A DNA stretch of 64,000 nucleotides from a virus (taxonomy: Duplodnaviria > Heunggongvirae > Uroviricota > Caudoviricetes): positions 104,585 to 168,584 of IMG/VR virus record IMGVR_UViG_3300009500_000011. One strand, given 5' to 3'. The number at the start of each line of letters is the position of its first letter. Positions within the stretch are counted from its first letter, which is position 1. Shown here piece by piece: positions 32,322 to 58,130 of this stretch. Both the position numbers and the translations under genes were made by a program. The notes beneath the pieces are model-generated. The model was not told the origin of the DNA. It worked only from the letters and a program-made list of their open reading frames with translations, and searched no databases.

Positions 32322-32324
32322 TTG

Positions 32325-33611
32325 ATGAGTTTTGATATAACACCAGTAACAACATTTATAAAATCAAATCCTTGGGTAATTGGAGGATTTTCTTTTATCG
32401 CAGGCGGAAGTTTTGTTGCAGCAATAAAAGAAATTCCTATTGCTATTTTTCAAGGTATTCGTCGTCAATGTATTCTTAGTTTAGATATTACTGATGAAAC
32501 AGAATTATATAATATTGTTCTTGAATGGTTAAATGACCATCAATATTCAAAAAAAACAAGACTTGTTACTGCTAATATTGACGACGATGACGACGATGAT
32601 AACAGACCTGGAACAAGTTATTCTTCTAATAAAAAGCAAAATGTTTATAATTTAAAAATGACACCTGCTCCGGGTAATCATTTTATTTGGCATAAACGTA
32701 AATTGATTTGGATGAATAGATATCGTCGTCCCTCTAATGCTGGTAATCACAAAAGTTATGTTCAAGGTTTCGAGATTGTTTGTGTAGGTAGAAATCAGAA
32801 ATTTCTTCGTACTTTTCTTGAAGAAATAATAAAATCTTATGCAGAAAAACATGAAGATAAAATTTCACTTCATGCCAATGTTGATGGAAGTTGGCGTTTG
32901 GTTAAAGAATTACCACAACGTGAACTTTCAAGTGTTATTTTAAAAGAAAATGAAATGGAAAATATTATAAATGATTTAACTGAATTTCAATCTAATGAAG
33001 AATGGTATCATAAATTAGGTATACCCTATCATAGAGGTTATCTTTTATATGGTTTGCCTGGAACAGGAAAATCAAGTTTAATTCAAGTCTTAGCACAAAA
33101 TTTTAAGAAAAATCTGTATGTTATCAATCTATGTGAAAAATATATGAGTGATGCTACATTAACTAATCTTATTTTGAGAATGCCTCATAGTTCTTTTCTA
33201 TTATTAGAAGATATTGATGCTGTTTTTAAATCTAGAGAAGAAATTCAAAATAAAACAGATTATCAAGGTGATGATAGCGAAGTAACCCTTTCTGGTTTGT
33301 TAAATGTATTAGATGGCGTAGTTGCTAAATCTGGTATTATCACATTTATGACAACAAATTATAAAGAAAAATTAGATACAGCATTAATTCGCCCAGGTCG
33401 TATAGACTATGAGTTGGAATTTACTTATGCAGATAAATTTCAGTTTAAAAAAATGTTTGAACGATTTTATCCAAATGCTGGAAAATCAGAAATGACAGAA
33501 CTTTTAAAAATAATTCAAGATAAACAAATGACAATGGCACAAATTCAAATGATTTTCTTAAAGAATAAAGACAATCCAAAAGGCGCAATAAAGGATATTG
33601 CAAAAATATGA
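32325..33611 (+). CDS. BCS1-like AAA+ ATPase with N-terminal TM segment
   Basis: N-terminal hydrophobic helix. GYLLYGLPGTGKSS, LLLEDIDAVF, LSGLLNVLDG, TTNYKEKLDTALIRPGRID. These are the typical BCS1-clade motifs. Confidence 0.85.
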   Translation: MSFDITPVTTFIKSNPWVIGGFSFIAGGSFVAAIKEIPIAIFQGIRRQCILSLDITDETELYNIVLEWLNDHQYSKKTRLVTANIDDDDDDDNRPGTSYSSNKKQNVYNLKMTPAPGNHFIWHKRKLIWMNRYRRPSNAGNHKSYVQGFEIVCVGRNQKFLRTFLEEIIKSYAEKHEDKISLHANVDGSWRLVKELPQRELSSVILKENEMENIINDLTEFQSNEEWYHKLGIPYHRGYLLYGLPGTGKSSLIQVLAQNFKKNLYVINLCEKYMSDATLTNLILRMPHSSFLLLEDIDAVFKSREEIQNKTDYQGDDSEVTLSGLLNVLDGVVAKSGIITFMTTNYKEKLDTALIRPGRIDYELEFTYADKFQFKKMFERFYPNAGKSEMTELLKIIQDKQMTMAQIQMIFLKNKDNPKGAIKDIAKI

Positions 33612-34465: not shown

Positions 34466-35905
34466 TTGAACAAAATTTACGACCTTATCATTATTGGAAC
34501 TGGCCCAGCAGGTTTTTTCTGTGCAATAGATTTAGTTAGAAAAGGATATACAAATATCCTTATGATTGATAAAGGTTCTCTTCGTACAGGTAAATCAGAC
34601 GAAAATGTGACAGAAGGATGGGCAGGGGCTGGGGCACATTCCGATGGTAAGGTCAATATGACTCATAAAGTCGGAGGAATCTTAGCCGACGTTATTGGGT
34701 TAAAGCGTTTCCATGAGTTATTAGAAAAACAAGACCAAATGTGGCTTGATTTTTCTCCAACAAATGAACAAAAAAAATTACGTCAACAAAAATCTCCTGA
34801 TGCTGATTTAGATGTAAGGTTATTCGTTCCAACTGATGAATCTAAAATTTTAAGAGCTAAAGCCTTAGCAAATCACATGGAACTTGAAACATATCCAATA
34901 AGACATTTGGGCACAGATAATATGTTAGATTCAACTAACAATATGCTCGAATATCTTAAATCTAATGGTGTTGAAGTAGTATTAGAGGCTGAAGTAAAGC
35001 AAATCTGTAAATATAAAAATGAAGAAGAATTTGTAGTAAGAGTTCAAAAAAAAGATAGTTGGTGTGACCCAGAATTTGGAGACTATGAACTTGAACATTA
35101 TGACGGGAAGAATGTTCTTATTGCTACAGGACGCTCTGGGGGGCATTTCTTCCGTGAAACCATGCAATGCTTAGATATTCCTATGTTAAATAATGGCGTT
35201 GATATTGGTGTTCGTGTCGAAGTTCCAAATGAGATTACAGATGGACTCTTAAAAGCCGGTATTTATGAACCTAAAATGCTTTATAGAACACCAACATTTG
35301 ACGATTCCGTTCGCACATTTTGCTGGTGTAATAGTGGATTTGTTGCAATAGAAGAATATCGTGATACCGGAATTAAGACAGTTAATGGTCATTCCTATGC
35401 CGACAAGAAATCTAACAATACAAATTTTGCTTTACTTGTTACAAAAACATTTACTTCGCCATTCGATAACCCACAAGCATATGCAGAATCAGTTTCAAGA
35501 ATGGCCAATCTTTTATCGGGTAATTCTGTTTTAGTTCAAAGATATGGAGATTTTAAAGCAGGTAGACGTACAACAGAAAAAAGATTAAATGAAGGAGCCC
35601 TTGTTCCAACTCTTGATGCAGTACCAGGAGATTTATCTCTTGCTATTCCTTATCGTCAAATGTTGGCAATCGGAGAAATGTTAGAAGCTATGGACAAAGT
35701 TTTACCAGGTATTGCAAGTAAATACACCTTGTTATACGGTATTGAAGCTAAATTCTATAGCAATCGAGTTAATATTGATTCAAATAGTATGACAGAAATT
35801 AAAGGTCTTTATGTTGCTGGAGACGGTTCTGGATGGACAAGAGGGTTAAATCAAGCGGCAATTCAAGGACTTGTTGTTAGTGAAGGAATTTTAAATGCAA
35901 AATAA
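34466..35905 (+). CDS. FAD-dependent oxidoreductase (COG2509-like)
   Basis: TTG start. N-terminal dinucleotide fold YDLIIIGTGPAGFFCA. C-terminal GLYVAGDGSG. Confidence 0.75.
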   Translation: MNKIYDLIIIGTGPAGFFCAIDLVRKGYTNILMIDKGSLRTGKSDENVTEGWAGAGAHSDGKVNMTHKVGGILADVIGLKRFHELLEKQDQMWLDFSPTNEQKKLRQQKSPDADLDVRLFVPTDESKILRAKALANHMELETYPIRHLGTDNMLDSTNNMLEYLKSNGVEVVLEAEVKQICKYKNEEEFVVRVQKKDSWCDPEFGDYELEHYDGKNVLIATGRSGGHFFRETMQCLDIPMLNNGVDIGVRVEVPNEITDGLLKAGIYEPKMLYRTPTFDDSVRTFCWCNSGFVAIEEYRDTGIKTVNGHSYADKKSNNTNFALLVTKTFTSPFDNPQAYAESVSRMANLLSGNSVLVQRYGDFKAGRRTTEKRLNEGALVPTLDAVPGDLSLAIPYRQMLAIGEMLEAMDKVLPGIASKYTLLYGIEAKFYSNRVNIDSNSMTEIKGLYVAGDGSGWTRGLNQAAIQGLVVSEGILNAK

Positions 35906-36149
35906 TAAAACAGATTTATGTTTAAAGGCTTGGTTCTTTGCTTTTAATGTCGGAGATAGAATTTCTTTCACTTATAATAGCGCAGAATGTCAAGGCGAAA
36001 TTATTGAAATTCTCTATCAAACAGAATCAGATAATGAATTTGTAGCAGCCGTTAGCTTCTGTAATGATTGGCCAGCACTTGGTAATAGTACGCAGGTGAC
36101 ACTCACTAACAGTAATAACCTTAAATTACTTTATCCTCAAAATTGGTAA
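35895..36149 (+). CDS. stand-alone copy of the C-terminal domain of the 1111-aa repeat protein
   Basis: RISFTYNSAECQGEIIEI...FCNDWPALG...LKLLYPQNW aligns with RVKFRYNGALCQGKIILR...FCSNWKAIG...LLSINPQNW at the end of 41543..44878. Confidence 0.5.
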   Translation: MQNNKTDLCLKAWFFAFNVGDRISFTYNSAECQGEIIEILYQTESDNEFVAAVSFCNDWPALGNSTQVTLTNSNNLKLLYPQNW

Positions 36150-36233
36150 ATAATTAAACCACTTGAGTATAGTATACTTGTGTGGCCATAACTATTATAT
36201 CATGGCTTAATTTTGAAGGAGTATTTAAATTTT

Positions 36234-36779
36234 ATGTTCGAAAAACTAAAAACTTTTTTAAGCGTTGCCTATGATGTAATTCGCGGACGCGCTTTAGTAG
36301 AAACGCTTCATCCACGTAAACGTAATAAAGTTCGTTTGGAAATTATTCGTGCTGATGGCACAAGAGAATTACTTTCCGCAGGATGCAATAGTCGTGTAAA
36401 TAGCGGAGCAAACTGGCAAGCTTCACTTATGGGAAGTGCCGCAGGTACACCAGCAAATTATATGGCCCTTTCAACGGCAACATTATCTCCTGCTCTTACA
36501 GATACTTCACTTACCGGAGAAATTACTTCAGGTACAAATGCTGGACTTGCAAGAACACAAGCAACATATCAAAACTATACAGCACCAACAACCTTGGGCG
36601 GTCCTGCTTCATATCAATTGCAACATACATTTACTTCTTCAGCAACCGCTACAGTAAATAGTGCTGCTCTTTTTAATGCGTCTTCTTCTGGAACAATGTT
36701 CGTTGAAGCAAACCTTTCCCCCTCTGCCACACTTGCTTCTGGGGACCAGATAGTTTTAACGTGGAGTGTTCAAATTTAA
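36234..36779 (+). CDS. putative virion structural protein
   Basis: Start trimmed to the ATG after RBS GAAGGAG. T/S/A-rich beta-type composition. Lies upstream of the fibre genes. Confidence 0.45.
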   Translation: MFEKLKTFLSVAYDVIRGRALVETLHPRKRNKVRLEIIRADGTRELLSAGCNSRVNSGANWQASLMGSAAGTPANYMALSTATLSPALTDTSLTGEITSGTNAGLARTQATYQNYTAPTTLGGPASYQLQHTFTSSATATVNSAALFNASSSGTMFVEANLSPSATLASGDQIVLTWSVQI

Positions 36780-36844
36780 TAATTAATCAATGTTAGGTAA
36801 TTGTTAAATTTGACTTTCTATATTTTTTGTTATATGATTCTATC

Positions 36845-37306
36845 ATGGAAGATATGAATTTATTCAAAAAATGTGGTCATTGCAAATTAGTTTATCGTAA
36901 AACTTTCTTTTTTAATAATAAAGCAAGATATGATGGATTAAGTAGTCAATGCAAAAAGTGCCATCAAGAAGACACTACCAAACGATATAATTCATTAAAA
37001 CAAAAATGTTTTGAAAAATATGGTGGTAAATGTATAAAATGTGGCGATACTGATAGTCGAGTTCTTCAATTTGACCATATAAATGGTGGTGGTGCAAAAG
37101 AATTAAAAAGTCAAATTTTTGGCGGAACTTATGTACCTTCTACTTACTTTCAAAAAGTTTTAAAAGATACTACAAATAAATTTCAATTATTATGTGTAAG
37201 ATGTAATTGGATAAAGAGACATGAGGAACGTGAGCAGTTTACTCGTCTGAATGAGCAGCCAATTACAGGTGAATTACTTCAAAGGTTTATAGAATATAGG
37301 GGCTAA
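36845..37306 (+). CDS. HNH homing-type endonuclease (paralog 2 of 3)
   Basis: CGHC...CKKCH ribbon, LQFDHINGGG, CVRCNWIKRH. Confidence 0.7.
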   Translation: MEDMNLFKKCGHCKLVYRKTFFFNNKARYDGLSSQCKKCHQEDTTKRYNSLKQKCFEKYGGKCIKCGDTDSRVLQFDHINGGGAKELKSQIFGGTYVPSTYFQKVLKDTTNKFQLLCVRCNWIKRHEEREQFTRLNEQPITGELLQRFIEYRG

Positions 37307-37310
37307 TTAA

Positions 37311-40300
37311 ATGCCAGAAGGCTTTGTTTCAGTCCCAGATAATAGTGATGCAAGTATAACAGTTAAGGTAGTTGATACAAATGAAATAAGCATTATATCA
37401 ACTACCTTAACCACAGCAGTTACAGGTGCAGGTATATTTACCGTAACGCCTGCATCTATTACTGGAATTGGTATCGGAACACCATTAATTGTTGACACTC
37501 TTGTAAGTGGTGTACAAGAATCTGTCAATGTTCTTTCTATTGTTGGTTCAAGTTTTTCTGCAAAATTTGCATATGCTCATGCTTCAGGTGTTCCATTAGT
37601 ATTAAATGTAGAGCGCCAGAATATGAGTATAGCAGACCCAACAACTTATGGCAATATTGCTAAGGTTGCAAGTGGTACTGCATCTATAACTGATATTGGT
37701 TTAACTGTAAGACCTATTCCTACTTCGATTCCTGCTGGGACAAATACCATTGGAAATGTTGCTATAACTAGTCCTAATGGTGCTGCTGCTGGTATATATG
37801 GCCTTGTTAATCCTTATGGTACTACTCGTATTAGTGGAGAGCCAATAGGTTTATTTACTGATACTTTTGATGGTACAACTTTTGATACTGTAAATCGTTG
37901 GAATACGCCTACTGTGGTTAATGGTGGTGCATATTCACAAAATAATGGAGATTTAAGTTTAACAACTGGTCTTACTGCTAATGCTCAATCTATTGTTACA
38001 TCGCAACCAAATTTTGTGCATGTAGGTAGTAGTTTTCTTGAATATACAACAGTTGTTCAATTAGAATCTAGTCCAATAGCTACAGGTTGTCATCGTTATT
38101 GGGGAACAGGAACTTCTCCAACAGTTATTTCTGCGACAAACCCTGTTCAAAATGGATATGGATTTGAAGTAACAACTACAGGAACAATGAATGCAGTTGT
38201 TTATGCATCTGGAACTAAAGTTGGTTCTTATCCATTATCTATTCCAACGGATGGACTTCCACATAGATATGCAATTATTATTCGTTCAGATGTTGTTTTT
38301 TATTATGTAGATAACATCGAAGTTCCAGTTGCCGAATTTATGTTTGTTTTACCATCTGTACAAACTCTACCAATAAGATTTCATATTTTAAATGGAACTT
38401 CTGCTTTAACAAAAGCGCCAATTCTTTATGCTTATGGTGTTGCTATGTCCGATACGGCAGAAAATTCATCTGCTATTTCTGATGGTACTTATCCTTGGCG
38501 TAAGGCTTCTGTTGAAAATATAAATCCTAGTTCATCTGATTATGGGTTAGTAACTAGAAATATTCCCAATAGTACATCTAATCAAGCAATCGTTTCAAAT
38601 GATTTATCTACGACAGGAACTATACAAAATTTAAATGATACTGTTTCTTTAACATTAAATGGTATATCAAGTTGGATTGCTGAATTACAAGGAACTTGGA
38701 CAGGAACAGTACAATTTGAAGCATCAATTGATGGTATTAATTTTGTACCATTACGCGGCAGACAAAGTGGTATGGGTGGAAACACTATACTTTCAACTCA
38801 GGTTACAAGTACAAATGGGTATTGGCGTGGTAATGCTGCTGGGTTTAATATTTTTAGAGTACGTGCAATAACTGCTTTAACTGGTCCTGCAACTATAAAT
38901 ATTAAAGCAAGCATTGGTACAGATGCTGTCTTTTTAGATGCAGGTTTACCTCCAGGAACTGATTATATCGGTCAGGTTGGAGGAACTACCACAACATATC
39001 CTGTTACAGCCGGTGCAGTAATTACAACTACTCCAGGAACTACTGGTGTATCCGTTTATTCAGATACATATGGTAATATGAGAACTATTGTTTCTGATTA
39101 TGTTCAAACAGGAACACTTGTTAATTTAAATGATACTATTGTTGTAAATCAAAATGGTGGTTATACTGCTTGGAATGTATCATTATCTGGAACTTGGACT
39201 GGCGTAGTAACTTTTGAAGGTTCAGTAGATGGTACTAATTGGCAATCTATTACGGGTAGATTAGCCGGTGTAGAAAGTGGTCCTTTATATAATTCAACAG
39301 GTCTTAACGGTGTGTATAGAGGAAATGCTGCTGGTCTTCAATTCAGAGTAAGATTAAGTGCTATAACTAGCGGAAGTGTTACTGTTACAATTCGTTTAGG
39401 TCAAGGACCTTATGGAGTTTTCTTAAATTCTGCATTACCTGTTGGAACTAATAATATCGGTAGTATTTCTACTAGCACATTTCCTTCAACAGGCGTAAAC
39501 AATGCCCCAGGTACAGTTGGACAGACGCTATTATCTGATAGTGACGGTTCATTAAGAATACATGCTGCTGATATTTATTCTTCGGGAACAATTAATACAT
39601 TAGGCGCTACTGTTCAAATACAACCTGTTGGTCATGCTACTGCTTTAATTAATATTCAAGGAAGTTTTGTTGGTACGTTTCAATTTGAAGTTTCATTAGA
39701 TAGTTTAACGTATTATCCTATTGAAGTCAAACAAGTAGGTGTTTCAACAACGACATTATTAACAACCTCTAATGTTGGTGGAATTTTTAGAGGAAATATT
39801 GCCGGGGCTTTATATTTTCGTGTTCGCGCAACAAGTTGGACTTCAGGAAGTGCTACAGTTTATATTAACGGTTCACATGCTACTGCCCCTGTATTTTTAG
39901 ATGCTGGTCTTCCTATAGGTACAAATAACCTTGGAAGCACACAATTAGCGGACGGAACAAATAGTTCTCAATTAGCCAAGGTAACATCTGATGGGGCTCA
40001 ACTTGTTGCTATAGATTCAACAACATCATTGCCTGCTGGAACTAATTCAATTGGAAATGTTACATTAAATAACGACCTTACCTATACTGGAACTATTCTT
40101 GCCGGAACACAATTAAGCCATATTATTATACCTTTAAATGGTGCTAATACTATCGGTGTTAGCTGGACAAATAACAGTACAAATGCTATTTTACAATTTC
40201 AAGCAAGTGTTGATGGAGTAAACTATGTAGGTATTGTTCCTTATGAATCAAGTGTTTTGAATTCTTATGTTTCTACAGTATCGTCAGTATTATTTAACGG

Positions 40301-40886
40301 GCGTGTAAGTGTTGCTGGTTATAGTTACTTTAGAATTAGTAATCAATCCGCAACAGGTAGTGTTGGTTCAAATACAATCAATGTTAATTTTACTGTTAGT
40401 GGTAATTCTTCTATTGTAACTCTTGTAGACCCTATTCCACCTGGTACAAATGCTATCGGTACTGTTGGAGTAACAGCATTGCCATCAATACCTGCTGGTG
40501 GTAATACAATTGGAAATGTAAAATTAGTTGATACTGCTGGAAGCAATCAAGCTTCTGTAAATACAAATGGTTCTCTTTCGGTTTTATCTTACAATGATTC
40601 AACTACGACATATTATTATGCTACCGCAGCTAGTGCAAATGTTCTTGTTAAAAATGGTCCCGGCAGATTAATCTCTGTTACTGTTTTTAGTGCAAGTACA
40701 GGCATTTATGGTATTCTTTTTGATACTAATGGAACTCCAGTAGCAGGAACAACCACTCCATTAGTTGTTATACCTGCTTATGCCCCGGCAGGATATACAG
40801 TTTTTTGTGATATTCCTTTTGCAAATGGTTTGACTATTTTTGGAACCGGCTCAACCGGACCTACATATACTGTAAATTATCGTTAA
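37311..40886 (+). CDS. tail-fibre-like protein with four tandem ~120-aa repeats
   Basis: 1191 aa, G/T/S/N-rich. Recurring LP.GTN.IG linkers and four repeated modules between about nt 38610 and 40460. Confidence 0.7.
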   Translation: MPEGFVSVPDNSDASITVKVVDTNEISIISTTLTTAVTGAGIFTVTPASITGIGIGTPLIVDTLVSGVQESVNVLSIVGSSFSAKFAYAHASGVPLVLNVERQNMSIADPTTYGNIAKVASGTASITDIGLTVRPIPTSIPAGTNTIGNVAITSPNGAAAGIYGLVNPYGTTRISGEPIGLFTDTFDGTTFDTVNRWNTPTVVNGGAYSQNNGDLSLTTGLTANAQSIVTSQPNFVHVGSSFLEYTTVVQLESSPIATGCHRYWGTGTSPTVISATNPVQNGYGFEVTTTGTMNAVVYASGTKVGSYPLSIPTDGLPHRYAIIIRSDVVFYYVDNIEVPVAEFMFVLPSVQTLPIRFHILNGTSALTKAPILYAYGVAMSDTAENSSAISDGTYPWRKASVENINPSSSDYGLVTRNIPNSTSNQAIVSNDLSTTGTIQNLNDTVSLTLNGISSWIAELQGTWTGTVQFEASIDGINFVPLRGRQSGMGGNTILSTQVTSTNGYWRGNAAGFNIFRVRAITALTGPATINIKASIGTDAVFLDAGLPPGTDYIGQVGGTTTTYPVTAGAVITTTPGTTGVSVYSDTYGNMRTIVSDYVQTGTLVNLNDTIVVNQNGGYTAWNVSLSGTWTGVVTFEGSVDGTNWQSITGRLAGVESGPLYNSTGLNGVYRGNAAGLQFRVRLSAITSGSVTVTIRLGQGPYGVFLNSALPVGTNNIGSISTSTFPSTGVNNAPGTVGQTLLSDSDGSLRIHAADIYSSGTINTLGATVQIQPVGHATALINIQGSFVGTFQFEVSLDSLTYYPIEVKQVGVSTTTLLTTSNVGGIFRGNIAGALYFRVRATSWTSGSATVYINGSHATAPVFLDAGLPIGTNNLGSTQLADGTNSSQLAKVTSDGAQLVAIDSTTSLPAGTNSIGNVTLNNDLTYTGTILAGTQLSHIIIPLNGANTIGVSWTNNSTNAILQFQASVDGVNYVGIVPYESSVLNSYVSTVSSVLFNGRVSVAGYSYFRISNQSATGSVGSNTINVNFTVSGNSSIVTLVDPIPPGTNAIGTVGVTALPSIPAGGNTIGNVKLVDTAGSNQASVNTNGSLSVLSYNDSTTTYYYATAASANVLVKNGPGRLISVTVFSASTGIYGILFDTNGTPVAGTTTPLVVIPAYAPAGYTVFCDIPFANGLTIFGTGSTGPTYTVNYR
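38610..40460 (+). repeat. four tandem ~360-490-nt coding repeats in the tail-fibre-like gene
   Basis: Protein modules begin TGT(I/L).NLNDT / SGTINTLGAT / TGTILAGTQ. Each contains W(T/V)G.(V/F).FE.S.DG...(W/F/Y) and RGNAAG...FRVR, and ends LP.GTN.IG. Confidence 0.7.
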
Positions 40887-40892: not shown

Positions 40893-41540
40893 ATGCCTGG
40901 TTTACAAACGTTATATCTTACAAACACAGAATCCGTTATAACACCTGTTACTTCAATAAAACAGATGAATTTAGCATATGGTACAGCAAGTGATTCGTCT
41001 ACAAAAGTTGTTAATACAGCAAGTGGAACATATCAATTTATTCCAGCAAATGCTGCTAATGGAACTGCTGCAACTGTAAGCACTTCGCCGACTTCTAAAG
41101 GTTGGATATTTGAAAATACAATACCAGGGAGATATTGGCCTGGAACATGGACAATTCAGGCTTATGTTGCTTGTTCAAATAGTGGAGTTTGGACAGGTGA
41201 AACAGGGAATCTTGAAGCAAAATTTTATATTGTAACTCCAGGAACAACCACCGTTACAGAATATGCTGGTAATGCAAGCGGTACATTTACGTCAACAGCA
41301 CAAAATTTATCAGCAAATAATTTTACATTTTCTTCAAATTTAACTGTTAATCAATTTTTTTACATTTATCCAACTGCTTTATTATATGTAGAGCTTTATT
41401 GGGTTCTTGCCAATAATGCTTTTACTACAACAACTGCTTTATGGTTGGATTCACCAAACACATTTATTAAAACTTCATTTTTTGAAGAATATACAAATTT
41501 CAATTATCAAACTAGAAGAAGAACAGGAATGGGGAATTAA
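40893..41540 (+). CDS. putative virion/fibre-associated protein
   Basis: T/S/N-rich 215-aa ORF between the two giant fibre-like genes. Confidence 0.45.
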   Translation: MPGLQTLYLTNTESVITPVTSIKQMNLAYGTASDSSTKVVNTASGTYQFIPANAANGTAATVSTSPTSKGWIFENTIPGRYWPGTWTIQAYVACSNSGVWTGETGNLEAKFYIVTPGTTTVTEYAGNASGTFTSTAQNLSANNFTFSSNLTVNQFFYIYPTALLYVELYWVLANNAFTTTTALWLDSPNTFIKTSFFEEYTNFNYQTRRRTGMGN

Positions 41541-41542: not shown

Positions 41543-44500
41543 ATGTCGCTACTCTTGTTGTATAACCGTAAACTTTTTCAGTCTACATTAACTAATTCTA
41601 ATTTAACTTCTGATTCAAATTCAAGAAAAACTTATTTTTCAAGAACTAATGTAGATTCAAGTTTGTTTTCTGATTCTTCTGCTAGAAGTGCAAATTATAA
41701 TAGAGCATCATCAGATATATTCAACTTATCTGATAGTCTTTTGCGTAATACGTTTTATGCACGTAGTTTTCAAGAAATATATTCTTTTTTCGATTCATTA
41801 AATAGACAAGTTGATAACAGTAGAAGTGAATCAGAAATTTTTAGTACGATTGATATTCAAAATTTATCACGATTTTATAATCGTTCATCCACAGATTCTT
41901 TTAATTTTTCTGATAGTAATTCTCGGTTTTTAGATTTTGCTCGTCTTCAATCTGATGTTTTAATTTTTAATGACTTAATTAATCGTTCCACTAATGTAAA
42001 TCGTTCTATAACCGACCAATCTATAGAGATAGATTCTTTAACAAGACAAATTATTGATAATCGCCAAACTTCGGACGTATTCAATACTATTTTATCTTTT
42101 ACAGAACAGCAGTTTTTATCTAGGTCAACTACCGATGGATTAAGTTCTTTTACAGATTCTTCATCGTATAGTCGAGTTTTGCCACGTTCTGTTATGGATA
42201 CTTTTAGTTTTTCGGATTCAAATTCTATTTCTCAATTACTTCTAAGAACATTTAGTGAAAGTTATTCTTTCAATGATGTTCTTAGTAATTCTGGAACTCA
42301 TATCGCTTTTTTAAGTGATGTATTAACAAATTTTGTAGATTCAATAAGCGCCGAACAGTTTGTTTCAAGAACAATGTCTGATAATCTAACGACATTAGAT
42401 TTAGTAACTTCAGTTAAGACTTTTTATAGATTAAATTCAGATAATACTAACTTTGCAGATGCTATCTCTTCTGCTAATATTTTAAATAGATTTAATATTC
42501 AAAATTTAAATTTTAATGATTCACTTAATAATCAAAATATTTTTAATAGAAATAATAGTGATTTAGTTAATAATTTTAATGATTCCACTTTAATATCTCA
42601 ATTTTTAAATCGAACCTCAAATGAGGTGTTTTCAACATCTGATATTTTATCTTTGGCGCAATTTTTGTCTCGTAATCCAACAGATATTCTTACAACGTTA
42701 GATAATAACGGTAGAAATATCTTTATTTCTAAATCAGTAATTGATTCTATTTTAACTTTCGATAGTCTTCAAAGCACGAAGATTGCTAATTTAAATCTTC
42801 AAGAAACATTTAGCTTTAGTGATGTTCTTTTAAGAAATATTATAGATTTCCGTACAAATTCAGACAGTTTTGCGTTTGTTGATTTTGTCAATAATTATAA
42901 TATATTTACAAAATCAATTGTTGAATCTTTCCAAACAAATGATTTGCTAACAAGGGAGTATATCTCAAATCAAAATCTTCAAGAAAACTTTAATTTTTTA
43001 GATATATTATCTGAAAGTCAATTTTTACAAAGACAATGTTCAGAACAATTTAATTTTATTGATGGTATATTGAGAGAAGTAATCATTAATAGGGCCATGA
43101 ACGAAACTCTATTGGAATCAGATGACATTACTACTGCTTTAGTTTTCTTTAGGAATATAAATGAACAATTCTCTACCGCAGCATCTGTAAGTTATGTACA
43201 TTCATTCGTTAGAAATTTGTTAGAAAATTTTGCAACTTCTAATTCCATTAGCAGGGCTCTTATTTCTCCAAGAAATACTTCTGATTTCTTTAATCAAATT
43301 GTCGATACTTTAAATTCATATAAAATTGCCAATTTTAATCTTGATGAAACTTTTGCATTTAATGATTCTTTATCTCAAATGTCTCTGGTTTTTAGGAATT
43401 TTTCAGATTTATTTAGTTTTTTTGATTTTACAACAAGTAATGCAATAATTCCTAGAAATATTGAAGAATCATATCCTATAAGTGATTCATTGTCCAATAA
43501 CAATTTGTTTTCAAGACTTTTCGAAGAAGAATTTAATTTTACTGATGCTGTTAATATAAGTCAGAGTTTGGCGCGTCAATTCTTAGATAGTTTTATTTTT
43601 TTTGATAATGTTTCAACAAATAGTTCAGGCGGTTTGTTTTTAAGAGTAATATCAGATGTTTTAAATACTAATGATTCTAGTGAAATAAATCAATTTTTAA
43701 ATCGTGAAAATACCGATACATCATTAACTAGTGATTCGCTCCAAAACTCCAATATTTTAAATAGACAATTTCAAGACTTATTAAGTATAGCAGATACCTT
43801 AACTTCTACTAATGAATTTAATAGATTTTTTTCTGATTTGTTGCAAACTAATGATGCTGCAAATTCAAATTACGTTTATAATTCAAATTTATCTGATAAT
43901 TTAAACACAAGTGATTCGCTAAATAGATTTTTTCTAAATATTGCAAACTTAGCAGAAACATTTACAACAACAGATTCCAACTCCAGAGAATCTATTTTGG
44001 CGCGAAGTCTATCTGAAACATTTTCTCTATTGGATTTATTAACTAGAGTTTTATCTAAAGTAAGGTTATTAAACGATAATCTTCCCTTTACTTTTGATTC
44101 ACTTGCAACATATAGTACGTTTTTTAGAGAACTGCAAGAAGAGTATATATCATCCGAAGAATTAATTAACGAATCTATTTATAAAAGGCAACTTGAAAAT
44201 ACATTTACAACTTTGGATGAGTTGATGCGTGTTTTACTTATTGCTAGGGAAGTATTTGAAGTCGGAGAAATATCAGATACTGTTGCAAGTAAAGCAGTTA
44301 TTCTAAGATTTGTAGAAGAATTTTTTGAATTAGTAGATAATATTGCCTTAAATCAAAGAATTAATCGTAGTTCTGAGTATCAAAGTAACTTCTCGGATAT
44401 TCTAAATAGAGAAGTTATATTAGAAAGATTTTTGTCTGATTCAAGTCAATTTTTTGACAATTCTTTACTTCAAAAAGTTGGTGCAAGATTTTTCGTTAAT

Positions 44501-44878
44501 TTATTTGATGAATACTCATTTACTGATGAACTTATTGGGACAAGTTTGTTAGAAAGATTTTCTCAGGACATATTACAAACAGCCGATGAAGTTGCTCGTT
44601 TAGTAAATAATAATAGAAGTGTAGAAGAAATTTTTGAATTCTTAGATATTGCTTCGCGTAAACCAGTATTTAAAATTGGTCAAAGAGTTAAATTCAGATA
44701 TAATGGTGCCTTATGTCAAGGTAAAATTATTTTAAGATATTATGCAACAAATCCTAGTGAAGGCATTAGATATCAAGTTAATGTTGATTTTTGTAGTAAT
44801 TGGAAAGCAATTGGAAAAACAACACGAATTGATGTAGATTTAAATGATTTATTATCAATTAATCCTCAGAATTGGTAA
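41543..44878 (+). CDS. giant tandem-repeat protein (~50 x 20-aa units), putative fibrous virion protein
   Basis: Period-20 repeat R-x2-S-[DE]-x-F-x-F-x-D-S-x8 over about 1000 aa. Unique C-terminal domain ending PQNW. Confidence 0.6.
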   Translation: MSLLLLYNRKLFQSTLTNSNLTSDSNSRKTYFSRTNVDSSLFSDSSARSANYNRASSDIFNLSDSLLRNTFYARSFQEIYSFFDSLNRQVDNSRSESEIFSTIDIQNLSRFYNRSSTDSFNFSDSNSRFLDFARLQSDVLIFNDLINRSTNVNRSITDQSIEIDSLTRQIIDNRQTSDVFNTILSFTEQQFLSRSTTDGLSSFTDSSSYSRVLPRSVMDTFSFSDSNSISQLLLRTFSESYSFNDVLSNSGTHIAFLSDVLTNFVDSISAEQFVSRTMSDNLTTLDLVTSVKTFYRLNSDNTNFADAISSANILNRFNIQNLNFNDSLNNQNIFNRNNSDLVNNFNDSTLISQFLNRTSNEVFSTSDILSLAQFLSRNPTDILTTLDNNGRNIFISKSVIDSILTFDSLQSTKIANLNLQETFSFSDVLLRNIIDFRTNSDSFAFVDFVNNYNIFTKSIVESFQTNDLLTREYISNQNLQENFNFLDILSESQFLQRQCSEQFNFIDGILREVIINRAMNETLLESDDITTALVFFRNINEQFSTAASVSYVHSFVRNLLENFATSNSISRALISPRNTSDFFNQIVDTLNSYKIANFNLDETFAFNDSLSQMSLVFRNFSDLFSFFDFTTSNAIIPRNIEESYPISDSLSNNNLFSRLFEEEFNFTDAVNISQSLARQFLDSFIFFDNVSTNSSGGLFLRVISDVLNTNDSSEINQFLNRENTDTSLTSDSLQNSNILNRQFQDLLSIADTLTSTNEFNRFFSDLLQTNDAANSNYVYNSNLSDNLNTSDSLNRFFLNIANLAETFTTTDSNSRESILARSLSETFSLLDLLTRVLSKVRLLNDNLPFTFDSLATYSTFFRELQEEYISSEELINESIYKRQLENTFTTLDELMRVLLIAREVFEVGEISDTVASKAVILRFVEEFFELVDNIALNQRINRSSEYQSNFSDILNREVILERFLSDSSQFFDNSLLQKVGARFFVNLFDEYSFTDELIGTSLLERFSQDILQTADEVARLVNNNRSVEEIFEFLDIASRKPVFKIGQRVKFRYNGALCQGKIILRYYATNPSEGIRYQVNVDFCSNWKAIGKTTRIDVDLNDLLSINPQNW
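41600..44640 (+). repeat. ~50 tandem 60-nt (20-aa) degenerate coding repeats
   Basis: Consecutive 20-residue units such as RASSDIFNLSDSLLRNTFYA / RSFQEIYSFFDSLNRQVDNS / RSESEIFSTIDIQNLSRFYN / RSSTDSFNFSDSNSRFLDFA. Confidence 0.75.
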
Positions 44879-45464: not shown

Positions 45465-45498
45465 AATCCTTGGGAATATATTTCTCAAGGATTTTTTT
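45465..45498 (+). terminator. intrinsic terminator closing the Y-RNA-like array
   Basis: AATCCTTGGGA...TCTCAAGGATT followed by TTTTT. Confidence 0.6.
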
Positions 45499-50046: not shown

Positions 50047-50124
50047 GGTGTTTGTAGTGTAGTGGTTTTAGCACGTTAGCCTGTGAAGCTGAAAGGGCCG
50101 TTTCGAATACGGTCAAACACCCCA
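50047..50124 (+). tRNA. tRNA-His(GTG) with genome-encoded G-1
   Basis: G-1 followed by acceptor GTGTTTG/CAAACAC with C73 opposite G-1. Arm TTAGC-CTGTGAA-GCTGA. T arm GCCGT-TTCGAAT-ACGGT, CCA. Promoter at 50007-50035. Confidence 0.85.
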
Positions 50125-50155
50125 ATTAAATCTTTCTTGAAGAAGAGAAAAATAA

Positions 50156-50284
50156 ATGCACATTATAAAAACTTACTCACCTTATCATGTTGCTTGTACA
50201 TGTAATCATCCTAAATATAAACATATTGAAGGAGCAAAATGTGTAAAAGCAGAATGTAATTGTGAGTCATTTAACCGTAAGTAA
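50156..50284 (+). CDS. candidate 42-aa Cys/His-rich peptide
   Basis: Lies between tRNA-His and tRNA-Gly; C.C..H...H...C...C.C pattern. Confidence 0.25.
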   Translation: MHIIKTYSPYHVACTCNHPKYKHIEGAKCVKAECNCESFNRK

Positions 50285-50291
50285 AATTTTT

Positions 50292-50369
50292 GCGAGTATG
50301 GTGTTTAACGGTTCAGCATGGGTGCCTTCCAAGCATTTGGTGCCGGTTCAAATCCGGCTACTCGCTCCA
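50292..50369 (+). tRNA. tRNA-Gly(TCC)
   Basis: Acceptor GCGAGTA/TACTCGC, arm GGTGC-CTTCCAA-GCATT, T arm GCCGG-TTCAAAT-CCGGC, CCA. Confidence 0.85.
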
Positions 50370-50387
50370 ATTATTTAAGGAATTATA

Positions 50388-50858
50388 GTGGCAAAACATA
50401 GATTAAGTTTTTTTCAACGTTTATCTGGTTTAACAACTGAACTTGATGGATATAAACTTGATGACAATGCCTACTTTATTTATAGTTATCGACCTCATAA
50501 ATTAAATGACGTTTATAGATATGAAATCACATTAGCCCAGGGCAAAATTGTTCAAATATCTACATTTGATTTTGATGATGACTTTCATCCTTACACTATT
50601 AAAACTGAAAAAATTTATCACCATATTCTGGATATTTTCAGAACAAGACAAAAAGTTACACCACTAGTTGATATTGATAGAAACATTGGTGTTAACCGAA
50701 ATAATATTTTTGTTAGTTATGATGCTGCACTTGAAAAATATGAAAAAATTGTTACTGAAACATTTTACTTTTTTAAAGATATGGAAGCAGCATCTTCATT
50801 TAAGAACCAAGCAGACGAATTGAATGCTCATCATGAATATCTTTTGAAGTTTTTGTAA
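50388..50858 (+). CDS. hypothetical protein
   Basis: GTG start. The 3' end overlaps the convergent minus-strand ORF by 59 nt. Confidence 0.4.
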   Translation: MAKHRLSFFQRLSGLTTELDGYKLDDNAYFIYSYRPHKLNDVYRYEITLAQGKIVQISTFDFDDDFHPYTIKTEKIYHHILDIFRTRQKVTPLVDIDRNIGVNRNNIFVSYDAALEKYEKIVTETFYFFKDMEAASSFKNQADELNAHHEYLLKFL

Positions 50859-51162
50859 GAGTTGTTTGCATAAAATCAAGACAATCTTTACACATTAAAA
50901 TTAATTTTGGATTTTGAAAATTTTCTTCATCAATAATTTCAACAAAATTATTTTTTTCTGTCTTGCAAAGCAAACATAAATGTGGTATTCCATCATTAAC
51001 TGCCAAAAAATATAAAGAATTGGAAAATTTTTCAACAATAATAAATGGCCTCATTTGATGAACAATTTCTCCAATATTTAAAAGATATTTTTCCATTAAA
51101 TCGAATTCTTCATCGGTACTAAACCCAGCAGATGTTCCATCGGGCTTGAATTTGAATAGCAT
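50800..51162 (-). CDS. hypothetical protein (reverse strand)
   Basis: 120-aa minus-strand ORF with CLLC...CKDC motifs. No competing + strand ORF across most of its length. Confidence 0.45.
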   Translation of the reverse strand: MLFKFKPDGTSAGFSTDEEFDLMEKYLLNIGEIVHQMRPFIIVEKFSNSLYFLAVNDGIPHLCLLCKTEKNNFVEIIDEENFQNPKLILMCKDCLDFMQTTLTKTSKDIHDEHSIRLLGS

Positions 51163-51186
51163 ATATTGTATAATCTCCTTATATAT

Positions 51187-51263
51187 GGCCGTATACCAGC
51201 CTAATTTCCTAAATTAGTAACTGTAGATGGACAAGGTAGGTTCGAATCCTATTGCGGCCTCCA
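51187..51263 (+). tRNA. atypical tRNA-like gene, CCT anticodon-like loop, no canonical D arm
   Basis: Acceptor GGCCGTA/TGCGGCC and T arm GTAGG-TTCGAAT-CCTAT, then T73 and CCA, are good. The only anticodon-type hairpin, CTAAT-TTCCTAA-ATTAG, starts 5 nt after position 9 and leaves an 18-nt 3' spacer. Confidence 0.45.
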
Positions 51264-51286
51264 TATAATTATAAGAAGATAATAAT

Positions 51287-51637
51287 ATGCTTGAAGATTT
51301 TAGTATTCGTGTATATCCAAATCAAAGCCTTACTCATGAAGAAGTGGTATTTTTTCTAAAAAATCGAATATTATGTTCTGATAGGATAACAAAAAAATTT
51401 ATTGCTTTAAAGAAAAAAACTATTCTAAATGGACTTTTTAGAAATTGTATAACTAGAGGTTCAAAGTGGAAACAAGCTTTTCAAACTAAAGAAGAAGCTA
51501 ATACTTTTGTTGAAAAACGATTTGGTAAAGATAAAGCATATAGTTATAAATGTGAACTTCATGGTTATCACATATCTTGCATAGATGAAAGTACGTATCG
51601 AAGAGGATATTTGAAAAGAGAAGAAGAGACGAGATAA
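51287..51637 (+). CDS. hypothetical protein, paralog of 62970..63194
   Basis: Shared motif W/K-x-F-Q-T-x3-A-x2-[FW]-x2-K-x-F...Y.C..HG[YW]H. Confidence 0.4.
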   Translation: MLEDFSIRVYPNQSLTHEEVVFFLKNRILCSDRITKKFIALKKKTILNGLFRNCITRGSKWKQAFQTKEEANTFVEKRFGKDKAYSYKCELHGYHISCIDESTYRRGYLKREEETR

Positions 51638-51670
51638 ATTTATTGGACCTTTCTCAAAGGAAATAATAAA

Positions 51671-52426
51671 ATGCGCGCTCTTGGTTTAAAATCTTTAGTA
51701 GACCCACGTAGGGACCAATATCCAAAATTAATTTTAAAAGATGGTCCAATTCCTTCAAAAGTTGAATATGCTCCTTTATATCCTCCGGTTGATGACCAAG
51801 GAAATTTTGGTACATGTGTTGCATTTGGAACCGGCAAAGTCTTTGAATACTTTTATAATAAGCAGAACAACAAACAACTTTTAATTTCAAAACGTGCCCT
51901 TTTTTCAGAAATTAAACAAAATTTTTACCCTCATGATACTCAAGATGATGGTGCCCAAGTTTCTGATGGATTACAAATATTATCTTTAAATTACATCTTA
52001 GAATCTGATTTTCCTTATGAACCGGCTGGAGATTTTAGTCAGTTTTTACATGGGGTTCCAGCAAATCTTGAAAAAACAGATTTTAAAATAAAACATTTTG
52101 TATCGGTAAATCCCGTCATTGATGATATGAAAAATGCATTATTTCATCAAGGCCCTTTAGCTATCGGAACATCCTTTGCAAACGAATGGATGGAGATTGG
52201 TAGTGATGGTCGTTTACCTGGTTCTAATCTTACATCTGCTGGTGGACATTGCATGTCTATTACCGGATATGATGATGACTTTGTAAATCTAGATGGTTCA
52301 AAAGGTGCTTTCCATTATATTAACAATTGGTCAACTGCTTGGGGCCAAGAAGGATATGCTTGGTTGCCATATAACGTTGATACAGACTTTTTTCCAACCG
52401 ACCTTTTTACAGTTCAAGTTCAATAA
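51671..52426 (+). CDS. papain-like cysteine peptidase (C1 family)
   Basis: QGNFGTCVAFG (Gln/Cys), GGHCMSITGYDD (His), NNWSTAWGQEGYAW (Asn/Trp). Complete catalytic signature. Confidence 0.85.
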   Translation: MRALGLKSLVDPRRDQYPKLILKDGPIPSKVEYAPLYPPVDDQGNFGTCVAFGTGKVFEYFYNKQNNKQLLISKRALFSEIKQNFYPHDTQDDGAQVSDGLQILSLNYILESDFPYEPAGDFSQFLHGVPANLEKTDFKIKHFVSVNPVIDDMKNALFHQGPLAIGTSFANEWMEIGSDGRLPGSNLTSAGGHCMSITGYDDDFVNLDGSKGAFHYINNWSTAWGQEGYAWLPYNVDTDFFPTDLFTVQVQ

Positions 52427-52437
52427 TAATCAAACTG

Positions 52438-52466
52438 TTGACAAAACAGAGGAAATTGATTATACT
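52438..52466 (+). promoter_or_regulatory. sigma70-type promoter for the tmRNA transcript
   Basis: TTGACA-17 nt-TATACT. Confidence 0.6.
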
Positions 52467-52471
52467 ATAGA

Positions 52472-52602
52472 TATGGTCGTAAGAGACTAGTCGCGGTCTG
52501 AAAAAAAGCCGCCTTGCGTTGACCCTCTTATCACGCCCGTAAACTCGGGACTTAGTAAGTCCTTCCAGAACAAGTCTAATAAACACTCTGGAAGGCAAAC
52601 TT
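52472..52602 (+). ncRNA. structured 5' leader or co-transcribed RNA upstream of the tmRNA
   Basis: Lies between the predicted TSS and the tmRNA 5' end. 9-bp hairpin CCTTCCAGA/TCTGGAAGG and hairpin GGACTT/AAGTCC. Confidence 0.35.
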
Positions 52603-53054
52603 GGGATATAGCAGTTTTGACTGGAAAACCAAGGGCTATAAGACAAGCAGTAGAGCATTAGGCTACTATAAAAAATGCAAACAAACAATCGCAGACTTTT
52701 CTGTAACTGGGTTCAACGACTTCATCGCTCGCGAAGCGGTCGCTGCCTAAAACCTCTCTAGGCTCGTAGAGTAATACGGGCTAAGGGAAACATAGTTTCC
52801 CTACCTTATCCGTGGGGCCACACGGAAGGTTCGATTCACGTTTCAGAGGTTACTACTCTGTAGCACCATAAACGAGAATATTACCCTTATGAATAAGGGC
52901 GACCGGAGGGCTAGGTCGTAAATGGCGCTCATTGTAGGCTGAAATTTCCTACAAAACCAAGTCCTGGTTGAGGGAATAAATATCAGGAAGCTTGTATAAT
53001 CAAATAGTTCGAAGATTCTAGGACTCGGGGGGCGGCTCCCCGAATATTCCACCA
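52603..53054 (+). ncRNA. ssrA: tmRNA (SsrA) candidate, one-piece
   Basis: 5' GGGATAT pairs with 3' ATATTCC-ACCA and gives G3-U70. H-type pseudoknot AGTAG-a-GCATT-agg-CTACT-ataaaa-AATGC at 52649-52678. Then a 12-nt A-rich spacer ending ATC and resume codon GCA at 52691. The tag frame reads ADFSVTGFNDFIAREAVAA, with stop TAA at 52748-52750 in hairpin GCCTA/TAGGC. GGAC precedes the T stem TCGGG/CCCGA. Own promoter and terminator. Confidence 0.75.
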
Positions 53055-53063
53055 AATAATAAT

Positions 53064-53095
53064 AAACCTTCAATGTAAAAGTTGAAGGTTTATTT
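53064..53095 (+). terminator. intrinsic terminator after the tmRNA
   Basis: AAACCTTCAA...TTGAAGGTTT followed by ATTT. Confidence 0.6.
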
Positions 53096-53096
53096 A

Positions 53097-53125
53097 TTGA
53101 CATTCTTAGGTAATTCTGATATAAT
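53097..53125 (+). promoter_or_regulatory. sigma70-type promoter
   Basis: TTGACA-17 nt-TATAAT (full consensus). Confidence 0.65.
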
Positions 53126-53131
53126 ATTGAT

Positions 53132-53335
53132 ATGTACCCAATGAATATTCAAGTAATTTATAAAGATATTCCTGGTTTTAAAGGAATGGGTCGCGTTGTC
53201 GGTGTTGCATCTTATGCTTTTCCTGGAATGGGCTGCATGTATATTGTTGAAGACTTAGATGGTAATATTCCGACCAAAGAATATCCTTATAAAACTTTTA
53301 TTGTTCAAGAATCTTTATTACATTTTTGTACTTAA
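53132..53335 (+). CDS. hypothetical protein
   Basis: ORF behind the consensus promoter at 53097-53125. Confidence 0.4.
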   Translation: MYPMNIQVIYKDIPGFKGMGRVVGVASYAFPGMGCMYIVEDLDGNIPTKEYPYKTFIVQESLLHFCT

Positions 53336-53340
53336 TAAAA

Positions 53341-53538
53341 ATGACAGTTAAAGAATTAATTTTGGGATTATCTAAATTTGACGAAAATTTTACTATTGTT
53401 ACCAGGACTGGAAAATATTATTTAGCAGATAAAGTAACAACCGTTGAAGATGGATGGTTTGATGAAGAAAATATGATTTTTTATATTGAATCTTCATTTA
53501 AAGACATAAATATTAAAAACGCTGTATTAATAGAGTGA
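53341..53538 (+). CDS. hypothetical protein
   Basis: ORF 53326..53538 trimmed to ATG (MTVKEL). Confidence 0.4.
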   Translation: MTVKELILGLSKFDENFTIVTRTGKYYLADKVTTVEDGWFDEENMIFYIESSFKDINIKNAVLIE

Positions 53539-53624
53539 TGGGTGAATTGGTCAAACCACCTTCCTGCTAAGAAGGCGCGACCCCTCAAAAGGTCTTCCGG
53601 GTTCGAGTCCCGGTCACTCTGCCA
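53532..53624 (+). tRNA. tRNA-Ser(GCT), type II
   Basis: Acceptor AGAGTGA/TCACTCT, arm CCTTC-CTGCTAA-GAAGG, long variable arm GACC...GGTC, T arm CCGGG-TTCGAGT-CCCGG, G73, CCA. Confidence 0.85.
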
Positions 53625-53646
53625 ATTTAAATCTAAGAAAATTATA

Positions 53647-53868
53647 ATGCGAAATATAAATGATTCTGTTGCAATTATAGCTTATTCTCAAGATGATTAT
53701 ATTATTGTTACATCTGGAAGAATAGTAGGTATAAAAATCCATGTTACTAAACCTGATTTATATAATGTTCTTAGTATAGATGGCAACATTTATAGTGTAT
53801 CAGATGATAAAATTTTTGATTCTTTTGAATCTGCTTTAGAAATAGCCAAATCAAAACCAAATTTATAA
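53647..53868 (+). CDS. hypothetical protein
   Basis: ORF 53542..53868 trimmed; its first 35 codons are the tRNA-Ser gene. Confidence 0.4.
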   Translation: MRNINDSVAIIAYSQDDYIIVTSGRIVGIKIHVTKPDLYNVLSIDGNIYSVSDDKIFDSFESALEIAKSKPNL

Positions 53869-54881: not shown

Positions 54882-54924
54882 TAATCAAAATAATAATTGA
54901 CAACACTAGAAAAGAAAGTAAGAT

Positions 54925-55179: not shown

Positions 55180-55185
55180 TAAATC

Positions 55186-56619: not shown

Positions 56620-56690
56620 GTAATTTACTACAATCACATAGCAGGTAGATTAATCTCTACCTGCTATGTTTATTTAAAAGGTTCATATAT

Positions 56691-56993: not shown

Positions 56994-57000
56994 TAAAAAA

Positions 57001-58120: not shown

Positions 58121-58130
58121 AAAAGTATAT

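Follow-up and report, generated by a model that had tools for sequence, protein, structure and literature searches.

What does a viral protein built almost entirely of one short repeat do? The question is raised by a 64,000-nucleotide stretch of DNA (positions 104,585 to 168,584 of IMG/VR virus record IMGVR_UViG_3300009500_000011, Caudoviricetes), the whole of which is referred to here as the window. An open reading frame (ORF) on its plus strand, at 41543..44878, encodes from an ATG start a 1111-aa protein in which a 20-residue unit recurs approximately 51 times. We propose that this protein is probably, though by no means certainly, the rope of a hetero-oligomeric, beads-on-a-string fiber of the kind exemplified by Fiber-1 of Ralstonia podophage GP4 and the collar and whiskers of Escherichia myophage Bas63, in which it would be threaded through dimers of a Gp80-like protein encoded in the same gene cluster. 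The proposal draws on the anatomy of the repeat, on a conserved linkage between repeat genes and Gp80-like genes, and on a 20-residue period in proteins encoded beside gp80 homologs of known phages. Below, family members are numbered with the prefix P and contigs with the prefix L.

Anatomy of the repeat protein

An earlier, sequence-only reading of this DNA described about 50 in-register repeats of 20 residues, and the analysis bears this out. The autocorrelation of residue identity at lag 20 is 0.217, compared with 0.085 +/- 0.008 in 2000 shuffled sequences (z = 16), and has echoes at lags 40 and 60. An iterated hidden Markov model (HMM) of the unit detected 47 units between residues 18 and 1039, which are spaced by 20 residues in 36 of 46 intervals and by 21 (four intervals), 23 (two), 40 (three), or 41 residues (one) in the others. 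Because the double spacings (40 and 41) reflect a degenerate unit that was missed, the total is about 51. The protein has three parts:

41543..41593, plus strand: N-terminal leader, residues 1 to 17; the first unit is found at residue 18, and there is no globular N-terminal domain
41594..44659, plus strand: array of about 51 palindromic units, residues 18 to 1039, the putative rope; delimited by periodicity, consensus, and mirror centers 8 and 18
44660..44878, plus strand: C-terminal SH3/Tudor-like domain, residues 1040 to 1111 plus the stop codon, a putative anchoring or docking end; recognized by paralogy and homologous C termini

The HMM-aligned units have the consensus R1(81%)-x-h3-S4-[DE]5(91%)-x-[FL]7-x-[FT]9-x-D11(83%)-x-h13-x-R15(40%)-x-x-h18-h19-x, where h is a hydrophobic residue and position 7 is hydrophobic in 85% of units; the repeat motif given in the earlier reading agrees with it. 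Units are approximately 20 to 30% identical to each other, yet they stay in register and share five conserved positions. The conserved charged and hydrophobic positions are all odd (1, 3, 5, 7, 9, 11, 13, and 15), an alternation like that of a beta strand. The protein is rich in serine (15%), asparagine (12%), leucine (11%), and phenylalanine (10%) and poor in glycine (1.3%) and proline (0.8%), and it has no signal peptide or transmembrane (TM) segment.

Centered on position 8, the unit also forms a sequence palindrome, in which R1 mirrors R15, h3 mirrors h13, D/E5 mirrors D11, and F7 mirrors F9. The mirror score of the HMM-aligned units is 0.44 at center 8 and 0.42 at center 18, while all other centers score 0.16 to 0.31, and this palindromy accounts for secondary autocorrelation peaks at lags 6, 10, and 14. 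Mirror symmetry is stronger in the family members P0129 (z = 16), P0001 (z = 12.7), P0002 (z = 8.5), and P0005 (z = 7.5).

The repeat gene is real and under purifying selection. Its ortholog in L004, a related contig of 274,834 bp that carries the same fiber cluster, is 98% identical and equal in length, with zero indels and a ratio of nonsynonymous to synonymous substitution rates (dN/dS) of approximately 0.25.

Gp80-like genes accompany the repeats

Upstream of the repeat gene in the same cluster lies the following gene:

36213..36779, plus strand: Gp80-like protein, putative bead subunit; 188 aa from a TTG or 181 aa from the ATG at 36234, the start called in L004

Its match to Pfam family PF23140 (Gp80, podophage GP4 fiber I) is borderline, at 26.9 bits against a cutoff of 27. 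A profile of eight Gp80-like proteins matches chain a of PDB entry 8JOU (E = 1.8e-9), a 140-aa chain present in ten copies that tblastn identified as GP4 gp80. The window protein is also homologous to the product of the gene that precedes the archaeal repeat protein P0002 on L001 (E = 1e-12). An HMM scan of repeat-family loci found a Gp80-like gene within a few kilobases of the repeat protein in 7 to 8 of 9 independent lineages:

Window and L004 lineage: yes
L001 (archaeal metagenome-assembled genome), L003, and L029 (P0085): yes, in each case adjacent
L010 (P0005): yes, adjacent and in two copies
L011 (P0105): yes, with three copies inside 8 kb
L031 (P0094): yes, at a distance of two ORFs; a major capsid gene follows approximately 2 kb downstream
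L013 (P0129): weak match only
L030 (P0042): contig too short to judge

The IMG/VR members L023 and L024 also have an adjacent Gp80-like gene. Among 158 surveyed proteins, none was found in which a Gp80-like domain is naturally fused to the repeats.

A 20-residue period in known phages

To our knowledge, rope-and-bead fibers are known from two cryo-electron microscopy structures only, those of GP4 (2023) and Bas63 (2025). A literature search found the Bas63 study as the sole paper on rope-type fibers and no paper citing PF23140. The whisker proteins of Bas63 are structural homologs of GP4 Fiber-1 that form dimers and have an incomplete beta-sandwich; the whisker or gp80 dimers, "like beads on a string," wrap an extended rope, by which their incomplete sandwiches are completed (PMC12609058). 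In Bas63, the rope is an N-terminal extension of the immunoglobulin (Ig)-like collar protein and carries two dimers (PMC12609058; PDB 9MT4). The same study describes the GP4 Fiber-1 rope as a separate, larger protein with five gp80 dimers that interlocks with an Ig-like collar (Zheng et al., J Mol Biol 2023, as cited in PMC12609058).

In GP4, the gene directly downstream of gp80 encodes gp79 (325 aa); both products are annotated as virion-associated. Lags 20 (z = 5.8), 10, and 40 give the strongest autocorrelation in gp79, which contains approximately 11 units with the pattern G-x-G-x-[IL]-x-[LM]-x-G-x-G. A class-based mirror test found no significant palindromy in gp79.

Homologs of gp80 are uncommon, as only 199 of the 50,697 deposited phage records contain one. 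Seven known phages with such homologs were examined, namely GP4 and six more, and a gene directly adjacent to the gp80 homolog has clean 20-residue units in six of the seven. Besides GP4 gp79, these are as follows:

BcepMigl gp28: approximately 7 units of 20 residues, adjacent to the gp80 homolog
Sinorhizobium phage PBC5 orf12: approximately 5 units, adjacent to the gp80 homolog
Mycobacterium phage Gardann gp24 (L018 5340..7625): 13 units, annotated "minor tail protein"
Mycobacterium phage Athena gp34 (L019 3739..4941): approximately 9 units, annotated "minor tail protein"
Psychrobacillus phage PVJ1_58 (L020 5369..6394): approximately 5 units, annotated "putative portal protein," which is probably a misannotation

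Pseudomonas phage Rollin shows no such gene. A lag-20 or lag-40 signal (z >= 3) is present in 6 of 14 adjacent ORFs versus 0 of 20 nonadjacent ORFs among those tested (Fisher p of approximately 0.002, hand calculation), and the mycobacteriophage period-20 genes are located in tail-gene blocks. Mirror symmetry is evident in Athena gp34 (z = 6.7), which in this respect resembles the window protein, and weak in Gardann gp24 (z = 3.1), which resembles most members of the window family in having an N-terminal globular domain followed by repeats. None of these proteins is annotated as a rope, and with 5 to 13 units, those other than gp79 have far fewer than the window protein. Only the period is kept between lineages while the sequences are unrelated, as would be expected if the dimensions of the bead set the period.

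The window cluster shares with GP4 Fiber-1 a homologous bead protein, a rope (gp79, as we read it) encoded as a separate polypeptide, a period of 20 residues (which in gp79 has a half-period of 10), and a small, adaptor-sized gene in the same cluster. It differs in the number of units (approximately 51 versus approximately 11) and in their motif (R-x2-S-D-x-F-x-F-x-D versus G-x-G-x-I-x-L-x-G-x-G). With Bas63, whose whisker resembles gp80 at the fold level only, it shares the order of the polypeptide, a rope segment and then a small globular docking domain. However, the Bas63 rope has approximately 50 residues or fewer and carries two dimers, whereas the window array has approximately 1,020 residues; moreover, the docking domain of Bas63 is Ig-like and forms a 12-mer collar, whereas that of the window protein has a free paralog.

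Putative modules of the two ends

The free paralog is encoded at the start of the cluster:

35895..36149, plus strand: stand-alone paralog of the C-terminal domain, 84 aa, a putative docking partner or adaptor; recognized by alignment and fold model

The earlier reading had noticed that the C-terminal domain (72 aa) recurs in this gene and had suggested a shared module, and both claims hold. The 84-aa protein is 38% identical to residues ~1042 to 1111 of the repeat protein (E = 8e-17), and a terminal PQNW is common to both. Homologs of the domain, which the same reading had suggested looking for in other phages, occur at the C terminus of P0005 (E = 8e-12) and, more divergent, in P0042 and P0085. 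On L010, the ORF directly downstream of P0005 (97 aa) is itself a free paralog of the domain (E = 1e-13), so the pairing of a rope ending in this domain with a free paralog recurs on an unrelated phage contig. L010, a contig from forest soil, also encodes, at 12328..12851 and 15942..16190, Acb5 and Acb2/Tad1-hairpin anti-CBASS proteins and a Cpn10 co-chaperonin.

Both the C-terminal domain and the 84-aa paralog were modeled as a small SH3/Tudor-like beta-barrel with the five-stranded topology of that fold, and comparison with a viral fold library returned only generic small barrels. In the window protein, the domain occupies the position that a TM anchor occupies in archaeal members of the family. 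We infer that it is the anchoring end of the rope, where it probably docks with or beside the free 84-aa paralog.

At the other end, the window protein lacks the N-terminal globular region common in its family. A candidate for this module is the product of the gene immediately upstream:

40893..41540, plus strand: 215-aa protein, putative distal or N-terminal partner of the rope; recognized by homology to the N-terminal domain of P0094

The 215-aa protein matches residues 3 to 188 of P0094 (phmmer E = 3e-14), in which this N-terminal domain is fused to a LamG-like region and then to repeats. By Rosetta-stone reasoning, this fusion links the 215-aa gene to the repeat gene of the window. The 215-aa stop codon lies 2 nt before the rope ATG (TAA-AA-ATG); a programmed frameshift joining the two ORFs was considered, and no slippery site was seen at this junction. 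The idea that the 215-aa ORF encodes a second Gp80-like protein was likewise rejected, as it has no similarity to such proteins and matched the P0094 domain instead.

A large family with archaeal members

The earlier reading could not place the repeats in any known family, and they indeed have no match in Pfam, PHROGs, NCBIfam, or PDB sequences. DNA and tblastn searches of deposited phages likewise gave no match to the protein, and scanning IMG/VR for the window protein and for P0013 was equally negative. A word-indexed search, by contrast, found two distant relatives, P0001 and P0002, with the same unit as the window protein (consensus RSASDSFSFSDSLSR plus five residues). An exhaustive HMM search was then made with A3, a profile of in-register 14-unit segments, and returned 4,220 representatives clustered at 50% identity at E <= 1e-3 (1,891 at E <= 1e-10 and 306 at E <= 1e-30). 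The same profile found nothing in the PDB.

Genuine 20-residue units are present in the family, as shown by the 26 sequences inspected and by an HMM survey covering 158 proteins, and the unit is conserved across representatives of very different base composition (locus GC content of 36 to 66%). Members typically have an N-terminal globular region of 200 to 900 aa, followed by the repeats and then by a short C-terminal module or TM anchor. The window protein is unusual in two respects, as it lacks this globular region and exceeds all surveyed members in unit count. Sampled members are all metagenomic and either lack a name or are called "hypothetical protein," and none of ten other members scanned has a Pfam family covering the repeats.

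Several members are encoded in a nonviral, archaeal context. P0002 is encoded amid genes for pyruvate kinase, CO dehydrogenase, and the urocanase pathway, on a contig of 207,796 bp from "MAG: uncultured archaeon isolate MFD09222.bin.1.112," and the P0001 locus is syntenic with that of P0002. Because the locus is syntenic on two contigs and has housekeeping flanks, it is not a prophage. In such a context, P0001, P0002, P0012, and P0013 each combine a signal peptide with a TM anchor at the C terminus. In L001 (9142..13987) and L003 (2457..8091), the archaeal repeat proteins consist of a signal peptide, globular domains, 17 to 24 units, a Ser/Thr linker, a TM segment, and a basic tail. P0001 and P0002 are each directly preceded by a Gp80-like gene whose product (215 to 239 aa) has an N-terminal hydrophobic segment.

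A proposed rope-and-bead fiber

That the protein is a fiber component, as the sequence-only reading had it, is upheld here as an interpretation of gene context and of the comparison with GP4 and Bas63. In the assembly that we propose, each 20-residue unit would run as an extended strand, with its core D-x-F-x-F-x-D flanked by arginine, through the groove of a bead subunit and would complete the incomplete beta-sandwich of that subunit. The rope would gain structure only when threaded through Gp80-type beads. The approximately 51 units would template a long chain of beads, such that repeat number would set fiber length; standard strand geometry (~3.3 Å per residue) gives a ceiling of approximately 340 nm for the 1,020 residues, with the actual length depending on bead pitch. 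The C-terminal SH3-like domain would be the anchoring end, in the same order of rope and then collar domain as in Bas63. The 215-aa protein would be the N-terminal, distal module, present here as a separate polypeptide, and a 1191-aa protein encoded upstream of it may also lie at the distal end.

A palindromic strand would be well suited to a homodimeric bead, whose two-fold axis it could span. Two stoichiometries can be envisaged. The ten gp80 chains of GP4, set against approximately 11 units in gp79, suggest one unit per monomer. In Bas63, the rope must be shorter than approximately 50 residues because Cys52 is already within the globular collar domain; four monomers on so short a rope, together with the palindromy of the unit, suggest one unit per dimer.

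Chaperone-usher pili offer an analogy, without homology: there, an extended strand of one polypeptide completes the incomplete beta-sandwich of another subunit, and a fiber results. Each pilus subunit gives one strand to its neighbor, whereas a single window polypeptide would donate approximately 51 in series. A second comparison is the neck fiber of the Anabaena myophage A-1(L), gp82-gp81-gp80, a bead chain of approximately 100 nm encoded away from other structural genes (PMC10966104). The window fiber would likewise be encoded apart from other structural genes, but the A-1(L) beads are trimeric and are joined head to tail by their own hairpins without a rope, and the name "gp80" is coincidental, the protein being unrelated.

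Weighing the alternatives

Several observations weigh against a rope-and-bead fiber of the GP4 kind. Alignment of the repeat family with gp79/gp28 (of GP4 and BcepMigl, respectively) gave an hhalign probability of 0.1%, and HMMs of the window family detect no known-phage period-20 protein, including gp79 and the mycobacteriophage ones. The comparison with GP4 takes gp79 to be the published rope, as we infer, and no PDB sequence matches gp79. A distance of 4.8 kb, occupied by three genes, separates the bead gene from the rope gene in the window, and the HMM scan of loci found no Gp80-like gene for the weaker, shorter IMG/VR members L022 and L025 to L028. An Ig-like collar receives the GP4 rope, but the C-terminal domain of the window protein, modeled with an SH3/Tudor-like fold, was rejected as an Ig-like collar domain of the GP4/Bas63 type. 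The fiber cluster is flanked by genes for an oxidoreductase and Ro60, its wider surroundings hold replication, nucleotide, and tRNA genes, and no capsid or tail genes were found in the 64-kb window. A weakness of another sort concerns structure prediction. Of the structure models that the earlier reading had proposed, that of the C-terminal domain gave the barrel described above, while AlphaFold2 modeling of 14 units gave no confident fold (mean predicted local distance difference test score of 46, predicted template modeling score of 0.17, generic helix). The input alignment consisted of in-register segments of the array used as pseudohomologs, and with its seven rows, this is weak evidence; the lack of a fold for the rope alone is compatible with threading.

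The same result bears on the solenoid or beta-helix that the earlier reading had favored, that is, a self-sufficient shaft whose units would stack without any bead as a beta-solenoid or as an intertwined (e.g., trimeric) beta-structure. Strict periodicity over 1,000 residues and hydrophobic/polar alternation would fit such a shaft, as would the stalk-like position of the archaeal array between membrane anchor and globular domains, and obligate oligomeric fibers are poorly predicted as monomers, so that the AlphaFold2 failure is compatible with it too. However, glycine and proline are very scarce, the alternation continues across the entire unit with no obvious turn, no confident fold and no PDB or family match was obtained, and the gene context points to an extended rope. 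A self-folding shaft would also leave unexplained both the Gp80 linkage and the identical period, with unrelated sequence, in six known phages, and we judge it unlikely. Alternatively, the rope-and-bead assembly might be real but have a nonvirion role, on the infected cell or in another structure. The genomic position of the cluster would suit this role, as would the cellular relatives P0001, P0002, P0012, and P0013 with their signal peptides and TM anchors, but the window protein has neither feature. Further, large phages often have dispersed structural genes, A-1(L) being an example (PMC10966104), and the mycobacteriophage counterparts lie among tail genes. The L031 module, so close to a major capsid gene, and the virion annotation of GP4 gp79 and gp80 provide support, albeit indirect, for a virion role, and a nonvirion one seems to us quite unlikely. 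Least probable of all, and in our view very unlikely, is a disordered, low-complexity spacer rich in Ser, Asn, and Asp whose periodicity stems from recent tandem duplication. Although the biased composition and the absence of a predicted fold would be in keeping with a spacer, the units diverge to 20 to 30% identity while keeping their register and five positions. Taken together, the low identity between units, the conservation of the unit in 4,220 cluster representatives over a wide range of GC content, and a dN/dS of 0.25 without indels between two genomes exclude recent duplication at the DNA level.

Implications

The fiber type is already known from GP4 and Bas63 and is not categorically new. 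What is new is a very large, sequence-distinct, unannotated family of putative ropes, its palindromic unit, and the extreme of 51 units in the window protein. Also new are the SH3-like terminal domain with its coinherited free paralog, the split N-terminal module, the archaeal membrane-anchored versions, and the finding that gp80 homologs in diverse phages adjoin period-20 proteins labeled "minor tail protein," "hypothetical," or "portal."

Rope-and-bead fibers have hitherto been treated as curiosities. If our proposal is correct, the architecture would be widespread, given the 4,220 representatives and the unrelated period-20 ropes in mycobacteriophages and in Burkholderia, Sinorhizobium, and Psychrobacillus phages, and it would reach archaeal cell surfaces. 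Units of 20 residues beside a PF23140 gene would then be a simple signature by which "minor tail" and hypothetical proteins could be reannotated and fiber length predicted from the number of repeats.

A bolder extension, which we offer tentatively and hold to be somewhat doubtful, is that the palindromic unit is a general "molecular ruler" by which one polypeptide, binding one gp80-type homodimer per unit, templates the assembly of a set number of them into fibers of programmable length. Thousands of phage proteins, many labeled "minor tail protein" or "hypothetical," would use it; archaea would have co-opted or originated it as membrane-anchored surface fibers with secreted beads; and the window protein would build one of the longest such fibers. 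From the shared module, one might also suspect that this 275-kb virus lineage has an archaeal host.

Other genes of the cluster and the window

From upstream to downstream, the fiber cluster comprises the 84-aa paralog, the Gp80-like gene, an HNH gene, the 1191-aa gene, the 215-aa gene, the repeat gene, and a terminator-like hairpin. Its remaining features are as follows:

36827..37306, plus strand: HNH endonuclease gene (phrog_2255, E = 2.8e-19)
37311..40886, plus strand: 1191-aa protein, rich in Thr, Ser, and Gly, with no family assigned
45465..45493, plus strand: strong terminator-like hairpin, a 12-bp stem followed by a T-run, closing the cluster

The HNH gene, which lies inside the cluster between the Gp80-like and 1191-aa genes, is probably a mobile-element insertion rather than part of the fiber. 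The 1191-aa protein has no Pfam or PHROG match and no similarity to repeat-family members; it was considered as a counterpart of the N-terminal domains of P0001 and P0002, to which it is likewise dissimilar. It is 90% identical to its L004 ortholog, which has 1256 aa (a 65-aa difference in length), and its internal segments of the form W.G.V.FE.S.DG look alike by eye but give no significant self-BLASTP match. The 1191-aa protein may represent an additional fiber or receptor-binding component.

The window has a GC content of approximately 32%, with nearly all genes on one strand, and looks like part of a large phage. It encodes a primase, a ribonucleotide reductase, an RNA ligase, a CCA-type nucleotidyltransferase, a dNMP kinase, two BCS1-like ATPases, and a Ro60/TROVE protein. 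The genes flanking the cluster are the following:

34466..35905: FAD-dependent oxidoreductase, 479 aa
45439..47205: Ro60/TROVE plus vWA protein; the listed ORF starts at a TTG

The terminator-like hairpin falls inside the listed Ro60 ORF, so the real start is probably a downstream ATG ("MKYNTKT..."). Rfam found no Y-RNA family anywhere in the window, including beside Ro60. In four closely related contigs (L004, at 7516..10011, and L005 to L007), the oxidoreductase has 831 aa and carries an intein-like LAGLIDADG insertion; the allele of the window genome is thus insert-free. The two BCS1-like AAA ATPases are paralogs, encoded at 4283..5812 and 32322..33611 (phrog_3757/7485). ARAGORN identified 32 tRNA genes, at 16876..28000 and 50048..62944, of which 29 score above the Rfam tRNA threshold; one ARAGORN tRNA (18948..19021) scores weakly with Rfam (35 bits), and its anticodon has four bases (atcg).

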